Shown piece by piece: positions 1,787 through 25,195 of a DNA stretch of 29,570 nucleotides. Every line of letters begins with the position of its first letter. The first letter of the stretch is position 1. Source of the DNA: a virus (Duplodnaviria > Heunggongvirae > Uroviricota > Caudoviricetes). The notes under the pieces were generated by a model. It had not been told where the DNA came from. It saw nothing but the letters and a program-made list of their open reading frames with translations, and ran no database searches. The translations under genes and the position numbers were made by a program. The DNA is taken from IMG/VR virus record IMGVR_UViG_2778261297_000001; one strand, 5' to 3'.

Positions 1787-2190
1787 TTCACAGGTGTTTT
1801 TTCCCATCCTGTGGTTTCCTTGGCGTTTTCTAGGTTTTTTCAGATAGTTGCATTTTTTAAAAAGCATCCTAAGTTCGATCTCAGTGTCTATCTGGGGCCT
1901 ATTTCTGTCCCATATATGCCCCAAAAAAAACTCCCCAACAGATAAGTAGTTTTTTCATGGATTTATGCGTAAAATCAAGAACGGCTGGAAATCATTCAAT
2001 ACTCACACTATCGAAAAATTTACCAGCCAACCGCAGCACGTTCTTGCATAAGGCGTGTCTGCGGTTTTTCAACTATTCAGATACATCACTCCCATCACAT
2101 TCATTCCTCCGCATCAAAGGCATATAGGCTATATCACCTTGATATTTTTATTTTTCAGATAAAAACTGTTATCTATGTATACTTTTAAAC

Positions 2191-2209
2191 CCAATCCGTG
2201 TAGAGTCTC
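2191..2209 (+). repeat. Direct near-repeat copy 1 (CCAATCCGTGTAGAGTCTC), similar to sequence abutting pinQ start
   Basis: 17 of 20 positions identical to 3098-3117; function unknown. Confidence 0.4.
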
Positions 2210-2570
2210 TGCATAAGATAGTTTGCAGTTGCCGCTTCAGCTTGCGCCATAAACCGCCTGATTTTTGCTGCCACCTGTTAGCATTCCTGTATACCTGAAA
2301 CGACAATGTTTATCTACGAACTTTAAGAACACCCAAGATAAAAATTGTCAACTATATCATATATAACACATTACTAATTCGAGGCTATATGAACAGCATA
2401 CTGATAATCACATCTCTCCTTATCATATTCAGCATTTTTAGTCATGCCCTAATAAAATTAGGGATTGGCATATCCAATAACCCAGACAAAACCGATGTAT
2501 AAGTCAACATATCCTGAATCAGACATACAATATCGCAATGAAAATCAATAATATTTTAAGGAATATCTTC

Positions 2571-2804
2571 ATGAAATCAAAAGACACCCTAAAGTGGTTC
2601 CCTGCGCAGCTTCCTGAAGTAAGAATTATCCTAGGGGATGCTGTAGTGGAAGTAGCAAAACAGGGAAGACCTATCAATACCAGAACATTGCTTGATTACA
2701 TTGAAGGAAACATAAAGAAAAAATCATGGCTGGATAACAAAGAATTATTACAAACAGCGATATCAGTTCTTAAAGACAACCAAAATTTAAATGGTAAAAT
2801 GTAA
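2571..2804 (+). CDS. ydfK: Cold-shock-induced small protein YdfK (77 aa)
   Basis: Translation MKSKDTLKWFPAQLPEVRIILGDAVVEVAKQGRPINT... recalled as YdfK/YnaE family; AAGGA RBS 9 nt upstream of the internal ATG at 2571. Confidence 0.8.
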   Translation: MKSKDTLKWFPAQLPEVRIILGDAVVEVAKQGRPINTRTLLDYIEGNIKKKSWLDNKELLQTAISVLKDNQNLNGKM

Positions 2805-3097
2805 TATAATAAACTTACTTTTTTATCATTTTTCCACTTTAACAACATTTTGCTCCACTTTTCCACGACCAAACAACTTGAAATCTGGTTAAAATAACAC
2901 GCAACACTATTCTTCTTCCTTGAGTCCGCCCGGAACTCGAAAAACAAACCGAGTTAAAGCCATTTTTCACAAAATCGATTTTGGGTCTCACCAAAATTAC
3001 GGGGTTGCATACGCATTCGTTTATTTTCGAACGTGTACATACAAATATGCACAAAAATAATCAAAATTATTTTCTGAGATGCATTATGATATGAACA

Positions 3098-3117
3098 CCA
3101 ATTTCGTATAGAGTCTC
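3098..3117 (+). repeat. Direct near-repeat copy 2 (CCAATTTCGTATAGAGTCTC) immediately upstream of pinQ ATG
   Basis: 17 of 20 identical to 2191-2209; ends 3 nt before pinQ start codon. Confidence 0.4.
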
Positions 3118-3120
3118 ACT

Positions 3121-3711
3121 ATGTCTCGAATTTTTGCTTACTGTCGGATATCAACGCTGGATCAGACCACCGAAAATCAACGCCGGGAAATCGAAAGTGC
3201 AGGTTTTAAAATCAAACCTCAGCAAATAATCGAAGAACACATTAGCGGCTCAGCAGCAACCAGTGAGCGTCCTGGTTTTAACCGGTTGCTTGCTCGCCTG
3301 AAATGTGGTGATCAATTGATTGTGACAAAACTGGATCGCCTTGGTTGTAATGCAATGGATATCAGGAAAACAGTGGAACAACTGACCGAAACAGGTATCA
3401 GAGTGCATTGCTTAGCATTGGGGGGCATTGACCTGACCAGTCCAACAGGAAAAATGATGATGCAAGTAATTTCAGCAGTCGCTGAATTTGAACGAGACCT
3501 TTTACTTGAACGCACTCATTCCGGGATAGTAAGAGCCCGGGGCGCAGGGAAACGTTTTGGTCGACCACCTGTGTTAAATGAAGAACAGAAACAGGTGGTA
3601 TTCGAACGAATTAAGTCAGGTGTAAGTATAAGTGCCATTGCCCGGGAATTCAAAACCTCGCGGCAAACCATTTTAAGAGCCAAAGCAAAACTTCAGACAC
3701 CTGACATATAA
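3121..3711 (+). CDS. pinQ: Serine recombinase / DNA invertase PinQ (196 aa)
   Basis: Resolvase-invertase family features: N-terminal catalytic serine context [10 protein letters not shown]-terminal HTH; recalled as Qin/Rac Pin protein. Confidence 0.85.
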
Positions 3712-3808: not shown

Positions 3809-6798
<2,990 letters not shown>

Positions 6799-6824
<26 letters not shown>

Positions 6825-23899: not shown

Positions 23900-25195
23900 A
23901 TGAGAGAAGTTGAAATGAAATATCCGACAGGCGTGGAAAACCATGGAGGGAAATTACGTATCTGGTTTGTTTATAAAGGCGTAAGAGTCAGGGAAAATCT
24001 GGGGGTTCCTGACACAGCAAAAAACAGGCGCGTTGCAGGTGAACTACGCGCCTCTGTTTGTTACGCAATAAAAACTGGTGTTTTCGACTATGCAAAACAG
24101 TTTCCCTCCTCACGCAATCTGGAAAAATTTGGTGAGGCCCGACAAGATTTAACCATAAAAGAACTGGCTGAAAAATTTCTGGCACTGAAAGAAACTGAAG
24201 TCGCAAAAACATCACTCAACACATACCGTGCCGTCATCAAAAATATCCTGAGCATAATCGGTGAAAAAAATCTTGCCTCATCGATTAATAAAGAAAAATT
24301 ACTGGAGGTTCGTAAAGAGCTACTGACTGGATACCAGATCCCCAAAAGTAACTATATTGTTACACAACCAGGGAGATCGGCTGTAACTGTAAATAATTAC
24401 ATGACAAATCTTAACGCCGTGTTCCAGTTTGGTGTTGATAACGGTTACTTGGCAGATAACCCGTTTAAGGGGATCTCGCCATTAAAGGAATCAAGAACCA
24501 TTCCGGATCCTCTTTCGCGGGAGGAATTCATCCGTCTTATCGATGCGTGCAGAAATCAGCAAGCCAAAAATTTATGGTGTGTTTCTGTTTATACTGGCGT
24601 TCGCCCTGGTGAGCTGTGTGCACTTGGATGGGAGGACATAGATCTGAAAAATGGAACAATGATGATCAGGAGAAATTTAGCAAAAGACCGTTTCACGGTA
24701 CCAAAAACACAGGCGGGAACCAATCGGGTCATTCATCTTATTAAGCCAGCAATCGACGCTCTCCGGAGTCAGATGACATTAACGAGACTGAGCAAAGAGC
24801 ATATCATTGATGTTCACCTCAGAGAGTATGGCAGAACAGAAAAACAAAAATGCACCTTTGTTTTTCAACCTGAAGTGTCAGCGAGAGTAAAAAATTATGG
24901 TGACCATTTTACCGTTGACTCAATAAGGCAGATGTGGGACGCAGCGATAAAACGTGCCGGACTCCGCCATCGAAAATCATATCAGTCGAGACATACTTAT
25001 GCCTGCTGGTCGCTGACAGCTGGTGCTAACCCGGCATTTATAGCAAACCAGATGGGCCATGCAGATGCGCAAATGGTATTTCAGGTATACGGAAAATGGA
25101 TGTCTGAAAACAATAATGCACAGGTAGCTTTGTTAAATACACAGTTAAGCGAGTTTGCCCCAACCATGCCCCATAACGAAGCAATGAAAAATTAA
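23900..25195 (+). CDS. intQ: Tyrosine site-specific integrase (lambda Int family), apparently intact, 426-431 aa
   Basis: Phage-integrase C-terminal catalytic region (..VYTGVRPGELCALGWEDIDL.., ..RHTYACWSL.., ..QVYGKWM..); 3' end faces att core at 25233; start may be internal Met at 23915. Confidence 0.9.
   Translation: MREVEMKYPTGVENHGGKLRIWFVYKGVRVRENLGVPDTAKNRRVAGELRASVCYAIKTGVFDYAKQFPSSRNLEKFGEARQDLTIKELAEKFLALKETEVAKTSLNTYRAVIKNILSIIGEKNLASSINKEKLLEVRKELLTGYQIPKSNYIVTQPGRSAVTVNNYMTNLNAVFQFGVDNGYLADNPFKGISPLKESRTIPDPLSREEFIRLIDACRNQQAKNLWCVSVYTGVRPGELCALGWEDIDLKNGTMMIRRNLAKDRFTVPKTQAGTNRVIHLIKPAIDALRSQMTLTRLSKEHIIDVHLREYGRTEKQKCTFVFQPEVSARVKNYGDHFTVDSIRQMWDAAIKRAGLRHRKSYQSRHTYACWSLTAGANPAFIANQMGHADAQMVFQVYGKWMSENNNAQVALLNTQLSEFAPTMPHNEAMKN

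Follow-up and report, generated by a model that had tools for sequence, protein, structure and literature searches.

Near-repeats flanking ynfT-ydfK in a Qin-type prophage are probably a coincidental pair, one of which overlaps a predicted res-like array upstream of pinQ

The window analysed here, a stretch of 29,570 nucleotides of Caudoviricetes DNA (IMG/VR record IMGVR_UViG_2778261297_000001), is one end, on the attR side, of a lambdoid E. coli prophage of the Qin type (ydfJ / ynfT-ydfK-pinQ). It starts with an IS1 insA fragment and ydfJ, on the minus strand, after which comes the Qin-type prophage; window position x is NC_000913.3 position x + 1,630,501. Three plus-strand genes make up the region of interest: ynfT, encoding a small protein of the YnaM/YnfT type (2389–2502; PF23676, K-12 annotation), ydfK, encoding the 77-aa cold shock protein YdfK (2571–2804), and pinQ, encoding a small serine recombinase of 196 aa (3121–3711, with its ATG at 3121; PF00239 and PF02796). 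Both ydfK and ynaE are annotated as cold-shock genes.

These genes belong to a module that is shared among prophages and free phages. A terminator-like hairpin followed by U5 (2029–2069, plus strand; −20.7 kcal/mol, z −4.45) is the left boundary of the segment common to Qin, Rac and free phages, and the first ~40 nt of this shared segment also occur in lambda, HK97 and HK106. Rac carries the module as ynaM-ynaE/ydfK-pinR at 99% identity, with homology from ~2027 onward. HannyBb and 2H10 are among the free phages with a ynfT-ydfK-pin module, which in such phages has the integrase/attP region on one side and tail-fibre genes on the other, a site equivalent to the lambda b region. An Rfam scan gave a sub-threshold CssrB match at 2032–2169 on the minus strand.

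Two short sequences on the same strand, copy 1 at 2191–2209 (CCAATCCGTGTAGAGTCTC) and copy 2 at 3098–3117 (CCAATTTCGTATAGAGTCTC), flank ynfT and ydfK. Allowing one gap, the two share 17 of 20 positions; when paired without a gap, as 2189–2209 (ACCCAATCCGTGTAGAGTCTC) and 3097–3117 (ACCAATTTCGTATAGAGTCTC), they agree at 17 of 21. A preliminary description of this DNA had reported the pair, and its coordinates, the 17/20 agreement, the common orientation and the position on either side of ydfK are all confirmed. Copy 1 is non-coding, lies upstream of ynfT-ydfK and, in its ungapped form, begins 6 nt past a −10-like TATACT. Copy 2 stops 3 nt short of the pinQ start codon and comprises the right part of a res-like subsite (subsite III, below) together with 7 nt of the variable pinQ leader/Shine-Dalgarno region. 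Both copies stand 6–7 nt from a −10-like hexamer on their own strand (TATACT, 2178–2183; TATGAT, 3085–3090). The best-matching part of the repeat is the 9-mer TAGAGTCTC, which falls mostly within the unconserved pinQ leader.

We compared the resemblance with what shuffled sequence produces. Smith-Waterman alignment of hand-picked 290-nt flanks scored 24; shuffled flanks averaged 18.7 ± 2.5, and 24 was reached in 13 of 300. When the two complete intergenic regions were aligned, the observed score was reached by 43, 114 and 224 of 400 dinucleotide shuffles under three scoring schemes, that is, 11–56% of shuffles equalled the alignment of the whole regions, and the likeness does not go beyond chance. 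Shuffle statistics of this kind were what the preliminary description itself had set against its reading, and they come out at chance level. Direct pairs of equal quality within 1.5 kb number six in the window, compared with 1.5 ± 1.4 in first-order Markov simulations. The finding was picked out of all six pairs. The repeat is real as sequence, but on statistics alone it is indistinguishable from coincidence.

The preliminary description had also seen the sequence downstream of copy 1 loosely echo the 5′ end of pinQ. This echo consists of one exact 9-mer, ATTTTTGCT; the downstream flanks score 9 against 8.7 ± 1.6, and with 246 of 500 shuffles reaching 9 the echo dissolves into chance. Evidence of a segmental duplication is missing both from the whole intergenic regions and from the downstream flanks, where the alignment does not rise above composition-matched shuffles. 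We also rejected a reading of copy 1 and the DNA downstream of it as a decayed pin 5′ end: stop codons interrupt the ‘LIFAATC’ frame, and the flanks align no better than chance.

The region around copy 1 offers some indication of its setting. A consensus scan predicts a single sigma-70 promoter upstream of ynfT on this strand, TTCAGA-18-TATACT (2154–2183, plus strand; 9/12), and copy 1 probably corresponds to about +1 to +20 of a putative ynfT-ydfK transcript beginning downstream of it. In the transcript-map literature searched, we found no experimental transcription starts for ydfK or pinQ. RNA polymerase binding has been reported in the ydfK-pinQ spacer (Shimada et al., 2014; PMC3946193), where the promoter, TGTACA-16-AATAAT, was picked by consensus, as are all promoters listed in the genomic-SELEX papers. 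A Fur site at the copies was considered and rejected, as the published cluster of predicted Fur boxes (Chen et al., 2007; PMC2189734) lies at ~2545 in the window, at neither copy. An origin of copy 1 from attP or a prophage junction was likewise rejected: the junction is at ~1776, and in HannyBb copy 1 lies ~450 bp past the end of the integrase gene.

In every ynfT-ydfK upstream region compared, identity is 89% or more, which makes conservation uninformative about copy 1 itself. Among 68 IMG/VR loci, copy 1 sits invariably at −382 from the ydfK ATG, and every IMG/VR locus with enough flank carries both copies in essentially invariant form; this invariance reflects the recent spread of one module and has no footprinting power. 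When divergent relatives of the ydfK module were sought, IMG/VR yielded YdfK loci that were all 100% identical, and the one divergent locus, in a Salmonella phage (below), has neither copy. The exact copy-1 15-mer is found in IMG/VR at 67 loci in the ynfT-upstream context and elsewhere at only 13, whose flanks are unrelated; it is not a portable element.

Copy 2 has a different setting, one that involves the neighboring recombinase. PinQ is a small serine recombinase (resolvase/invertase), with an N-terminal catalytic domain (PF00239, 2.5e-36) and a C-terminal HTH (PF02796, 3.8e-11), and its YCRISTLDQ aligns with the active-site region of Gin. In structure matches Gin invertase is best (E 3e-29) and the gamma-delta/Tn3 resolvases follow at E ~1e-22, and PinQ is about equally distant from the two; identity to the Din invertases is only ~36–38%. 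Relatives at 57–85% aa identity are abundant on plasmids and also occur in distant proteobacteria.

The ~115 bp upstream of pinQ-family genes hold a conserved, three-subsite res-like array, built from the half-site TGTMCGAAA/TTTCGKACA and interleaved with a TATAAT box. A 26-bp palindrome, a 32-bp palindrome and a third subsite are present in seven relatives from alpha-, beta- and gammaproteobacteria (Shewanella, Photorhabdus, Erwinia, Mycoavidus, an Oxalobacteraceae MAG, Parasedimentitalea and the E. coli plasmid pVTB929v), and they are degenerate but recognisable in Qin. The relatives’ upstream regions align in one layout, I / II / −10 / III / ATG, with near-perfect palindromes. Upstream of the pVTB929v homologue, for instance, come in order the perfect 26-bp palindrome TGTCCGAAAtcgaccggTTTCGGACA, a 32-bp palindrome, and TATAAT followed by ACCCATTTCGTACAGAAGATCTCACTATG.

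In Qin, the subsite I-like sequence (3008–3033, plus strand) reads CATACGCATTCGTTTATTTTCGAACG, where the 26-bp palindrome of the relatives is TGTCCGAAAnCGnnCGnTTTCGGACA. The subsite II-like sequence of 32 bp (3048–3079, plus strand; family consensus TGTMCGAAAGTAAGYGAAATTnATTTCGKAYA) is degenerate (TGCACAAAA...TTTCTGAGA). Next comes the −10-like TATGAT (3085–3090, plus strand) of the predicted pinQ promoter, and TATAAT or TATGAT is conserved between subsites II and III. The subsite III-like sequence (3091–3110, plus strand) is ATGAACACCAATTTCGTATA, against a family consensus of ayGTACAYCCATTTCGTAYA; in most relatives subsite III appears to consist of two head-to-tail half-sites, 13 bp apart. 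Its gene-proximal half-site, TTTCGTATA (3102–3110, plus strand), is the conserved core of copy 2. Across an alignment of 10 sequences, columns T122, T123, C125, G126 and A128 are invariant. The array is thus placed directly upstream of pinQ, overlapping the predicted promoter and ending 10 nt before the ATG at 3121; the stretch between subsite III and the ATG is 10–12 nt long in the family and variable in both sequence and length, and the weak ribosome-binding site sits within this unconserved leader. We found no description of a PinQ-adjacent site in the literature searched, and searches with half-site strings gave nothing relevant.

To score these sequences we used a position weight matrix (PWM) made from 35 half-sites of the relatives, all Qin-type sequences being left out. 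When both strands of the window are scanned, TTTCGTATA at 3102–3110 is the best match, ranking 1 of 59,124 9-mers (12.7 bits). Only this right half of subsite III and the right half of subsite I (8.1 bits) exceed 8 bits among the Qin half-sites, those of subsite II scoring 4.7 and 3.6 bits. The recognition helix S/T-RQTI(L/M)R is common to PinQ and every relative with TGTMCGAAA sites, and where the helix differs, in two relatives (from Sphingobium and a gammaproteobacterial MAG), the upstream motifs differ as well. Since the helix is conserved wherever the half-site occurs, the relatives’ matrix should apply to PinQ as well. Copy 2, then, overlaps a predicted serine-recombinase binding site and the pinQ promoter-leader. 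By analogy with res of Tn3/gamma-delta, it would belong to a gene-proximal subsite of accessory type, and the palindromic subsite I would be the candidate crossover site.

Copy 1 has no comparable surroundings. Opposite the half-site in the alignment, copy 1 has the 9-mer ATCCGTGTA, which ranks 2247 of 59,124 at −3.5 bits and does not keep T122 and A128, both invariant in the family. Copy 1 lacks a dyad partner or local inverted repeat, and is part of no array. Between 1800 and 3200 there is no second array, the other PWM matches in this interval being isolated and at chance frequency; the two PWM matches at 1838 and 2153 (TTTCAGATA, 8.5 bits) were rejected as a second array, having no partner half-sites, and about one such match being expected by chance.

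These observations bear on the proposal, made in the preliminary description, that the repeats are remnants of the recombinase’s crossover sites. Copies serving as direct-repeat PinQ crossover sites, or deriving from them, might mark the insertion of a ynfT-ydfK cassette or permit its excision, and their direct orientation, the serine recombinase gene adjoining one of them and the genuine family half-site inside copy 2 all suit this proposal. That half-site is the part of the proposal that stands. However, it is the only strong half-site in copy 2, the palindromic candidate exchange subsite is at 3008–3033 rather than at copy 2, and with neither half-site nor dyad in copy 1, nor a second array nearby, there is no pair of sites. 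The substrate reported for PinQ, the e14 repeat TTGGTTTGGGAGAAGG (Kirigo et al., 2025; PMC12529663), is unlike either copy, and the window contains no such site.

Recombination between the copies has also left no product that we could detect. We built a synthetic junction, with the sequence to the left of copy 1 running directly into that to the right of copy 2, and searched 5,426 complete E. coli genomes with it; the module is present in 2,808 of these, at 6,436 matching places. No contiguous match to this deletion junction was found in the set; the sole match over most of the query consists of two pieces 937 bp apart, with ydfK in between. A natural experiment points the same way. Salmonella phage 118970_sal3 has ynaM and ydfK homologues (88% aa) beside tail-fibre genes and without pin, and its locus contains neither copy, homology being confined to ~2335–2810 of the window. 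The limits of this homology indicate that the conserved ynfT-ydfK unit ends well inside both copies. Together with the missing junction, this leaves unsupported the earlier suggestion that the repeats could indicate how ydfK was acquired. We consider recombination sites at the copies largely refuted and very improbable.

A second proposal is that a small duplication, or short-patch gene conversion, copied ~30–60 nt of the pinQ promoter-leader (−10 box through GAGTCTC) into the region upstream of ynfT-ydfK, so that both genes begin with a related leader. The same strand and the same 6–7-nt spacing from a −10-like hexamer favor it, as does the alignment of narrow flanks (150–160 nt), which yields ~58 nt with four gaps, running from the −10-like hexamers through GAGTCTC, and is reached by 1, 5 or 22 of 400 shuffles. 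Against this stand the whole-region counts given above and the absence from copy 1 of T122 and A128, invariant in the family. The age of the match is a further difficulty. The nearest pin alleles (an 85% allele in locus L006, and that of pVTB929v) read AGAAGATCTC in the leader, and Photorhabdus nearly so; most parsimoniously, the exact 9-mer TAGAGTCTC at copy 2 would be a derived, 2-nt-shorter and lineage-specific state of Qin, Rac and 2H10. A match this young needs a recent event. A duplication younger than the leader change should have left similarity beyond the 21 nt, yet identity collapses outside them, in regions that are 89–99% conserved among lineages; an older duplication fails to explain the exact 9-mer. 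Moreover, locus L006 has an identical copy 1 upstream and yet AGAAGATCTC in its pin leader, and nothing therefore keeps the copies matched. The preliminary description, which had offered a duplicated promoter-leader element as its other explanation, was right in that copy 2 overlaps the pinQ promoter-leader; the duplication itself lacks statistical support and runs up against the derived state of the 9-mer, and we think it unlikely.

It is also conceivable that one factor, a protein or a small RNA, binds the 12-mer GTRTAGAGTCTC and co-regulates ydfK and pinQ, for example during cold shock or phage infection. This 12-mer occurs at only these two places in 29.6 kb, where 0.04 occurrences are expected, although the pattern was defined post hoc, from the data. 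The cold-shock annotation of ydfK and ynaE and the induction of pinQ/pinR transcripts by T2 infection (PMC12529663) would fit such a factor. But neither the alternative pin allele nor any other PinQ relative keeps the motif intact, the Salmonella ynaM-ydfK locus lacks it, no Rfam family falls at either copy, and outside the module the copy-1 15-mer turns up only in the unrelated contexts noted above. The cold box of the cspA family (UGACGUACAGA, near the 5′ end of cold-shock mRNAs) offers a point of comparison, in that copy 1 would lie at about +8 to +17 of the predicted leader of a gene annotated as cold-shock, and shares CGU..AGA; however, copy 1 matches at only 6 of 11 positions, and a cspA-type cold box was rejected for both copies, neither being within 2 mismatches. 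The cold-box likeness of the plasmid pin leader (CGTACAGA) is due to the recombinase half-site. A shared regulatory motif seems to us less credible still than a transferred leader.

We therefore regard the two 20-mers as probably a coincidental likeness and no functional or evolutionary pair. Read in this way, the repeat arose by chance in AT-rich prophage DNA, and the route by which ydfK reached its place beside pinQ cannot be read from it.

The array upstream of pinQ can be set beside known serine recombinase sites. Like res of Tn3 and gamma-delta, it lies immediately upstream of a small serine recombinase gene and overlaps the predicted promoter, and this overlap leads us to expect autoregulation by analogy. 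As in res, three subsites of one 9-bp half-site differ in spacing: the gamma-delta res subsites are 28 and 34 bp in length, and the pinQ palindromes 26 and 32 bp. Unlike res, where the half-site is TGTCYNNTA, the pinQ array uses TGTMCGAAA; its third subsite reads as head-to-tail rather than inverted half-sites; it is found in the lambdoid phage b region and on plasmids, not in a transposon; and its subsites in Qin and Rac are partly degenerate. The res sites of Sin and beta recombinase, from Gram-positive plasmids, have an accessory subsite with direct-repeat half-sites beside an inverted-repeat crossover site, and that accessory subsite resembles subsite III of pinQ. The Sin/beta sites, however, have two subsites and need an architectural protein (Hbsu/IHF), where three subsites lie upstream of pinQ, and the similarity of PinQ to Sin is weaker (E ~1e-7 to 1e-15).

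With the Din invertases PinQ shares a name taken from Pin and its best structural match, which is Gin. The Din sites (hix, gix, cix and pix, with a Fis-bound enhancer) nevertheless differ from what the window contains: the repeats here are direct and without TTCTCCCAAACCAA-type sequence, the DNA they flank is no tail-fibre segment, and Din systems have no counterpart of the conserved array upstream of pinQ. A Din-type site (TTCTCCCAAACC-AA-GGTTT, a 26-bp imperfect dyad in two inverted copies) is not what copies 1 and 2 form, both being direct. In the window as a whole, pix-like sites number two at 3 mismatches, against 3.5 expected, and neither is near the copies.

On balance we favor, with a modest degree of confidence, a reading in which PinQ, PinR and their plasmid and phage relatives are resolvase-type enzymes with a tripartite cognate site of their own, built on the half-site TGTMCGAAA and laid over the promoter, copy 2 containing its last half-site. 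The co-variation of recognition helix and half-site lends this indirect support. Under this reading, PinQ dimers would bind the three-subsite array. Subsites II and III lie on either side of the −10 box and the likely start region, so that PinQ bound there may repress transcription of its own gene, much as resolvases do at their res sites. Strand exchange would take place at subsite I if the same molecule carried two complete arrays, for instance in phage or plasmid dimers.

A recent study reports that PinQ, like PinR (99% identical to it), brings about inversion of the P segment (1,797 bp) of prophage e14, at the 16-bp inverted repeats TTGGTTTGGGAGAAGG / CCTTCTCCCAAACCAA (Kirigo et al., 2025; PMC12529663). 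In that study the e14 inverted repeats are the only substrate named, no site beside pinQ is described, Qin and Rac showed no inversions, and a pinE mutant keeps a single orientation. Neither copy resembles the e14 inverted repeats, and the half-site of the pinQ array is unrelated to pix. The array is thus in mild tension with direct action of PinQ on e14. If the array is indeed the cognate site, PinQ would act primarily in autoregulation and in resolution or co-integration at the array, and since inversion is lost in the pinE mutant and the e14 sites are unlike the array motif, inversion of the e14 P segment would be a relaxed-specificity side reaction or an indirect effect.

What is new here is a res-like candidate cognate site for the PinQ/PinR family; the repeat pair itself matters little. 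The array gives PinQ and PinR, two recombinases of K-12 cryptic prophages whose characterisation is recent and so far limited to a trans effect on e14, a concrete proposed DNA target, and it suggests that the name ‘Pin’, with its implication of an invertase, may mislead as to the native reaction of these enzymes.

Two loci whose recombinases differ bear on the assignment of TGTMCGAAA-type half-sites to PinQ and its relatives. In Sphingobium (L101) and in a gammaproteobacterial metagenome-assembled genome (L104), the pin homologue carries a recognition helix other than S/T-RQTI(L/M)R, and the repeats upstream differ too (for example, TAGATACA / TGTATCTA in Sphingobium). Because helix and upstream repeats co-vary, these two loci support the half-site assignment. 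At an Erwinia oleae locus (L100, ~1840-2070), two pin homologues lie head to head, and mirrored sets of TGTACGAAA-type half-sites occupy the space between them.

Within the res-like array upstream of pinQ, subsites I and II (window 3008-3079) are more degenerate in Qin, Rac and HannyBb than in phage 2H10 (L005 4043-4114), as exemplified by the left half of subsite I, which reads CATACGCAT in the former and CATCCGAAT in the latter. The array may be decaying in the Qin/Rac/HannyBb lineage, or weak sites may be tolerated by PinQ. The e14 repeats and the half-site of the PinQ family are unrelated. The pinE mutant that is reported to be locked in one orientation of the e14 P segment (Kirigo et al., 2025; PMC12529663) would agree with PinQ acting indirectly.

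Around copy 1 of the repeat pair, AGATAAAAAYTGT occurs three times. The first occurrence (2157-2169, +) is itself palindromic (AGATAA..TTATCT) and overlaps the -35/spacer predicted for the ynfT-ydfK promoter. The second (2303-2315, -), which is not kept in phage 2H10, and the third (2336-2349, +), which sits at the left edge of the Salmonella-phage homology, together make an inverted repeat of 14 nt shortly before ynfT. The three could be an operator set, or they could be there by chance.

Further left, a plus-strand hairpin followed by U5 (window 2029-2069; -20.7 kcal/mol, z -4.45) has its first ~40 nt in common with lambda (24162-24199), HK97, HK106 and others. As the homology among Qin, Rac and free phages begins at this hairpin, the structure resembles a terminator placed at a mosaic boundary of the lambdoid b region. 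An IS1 insA reading frame (9-284, -), which adjoins ydfJ, opens the window.

Downstream of pinQ, two genes are fused in a single minus-strand open reading frame (3809-4699): a lambda-type portal gene contributes the N-terminal half of its product (PF05136, profile positions 2-186 of 354), and a tail-fibre assembly gene contributes the C-terminal part of its own (PF02413, positions 37-130 of 131). The large terminase gene follows (4899-6824, -). One in-frame deletion has therefore removed from the prophage every head and tail gene that lay between portal and tfa. A full-length match to Rfam IS009 (3843-4041, -; 221 bits against a gathering score of 117) falls inside the tfa-derived coding part, immediately downstream of pinQ.

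In an IMG/VR locus (L038), unrelated sequence (1-125) replaces everything left of window ~2279, so that copy 1 is gone and ynfT-ydfK-pinQ is retained; the replacement resembles the end of an insertion sequence or a rearrangement of another kind. The record of Salmonella phage 118970_sal3 (L113) contains a second YdfK-like place. At 2813-3234 of that phage, homologues of ynaM and ydfK (YdfK 88% identical) lie directly beside tail-fibre assembly genes with no accompanying pin gene, an arrangement from which we infer that ynaM-ydfK is a two-gene unit that moves independently of pinQ.
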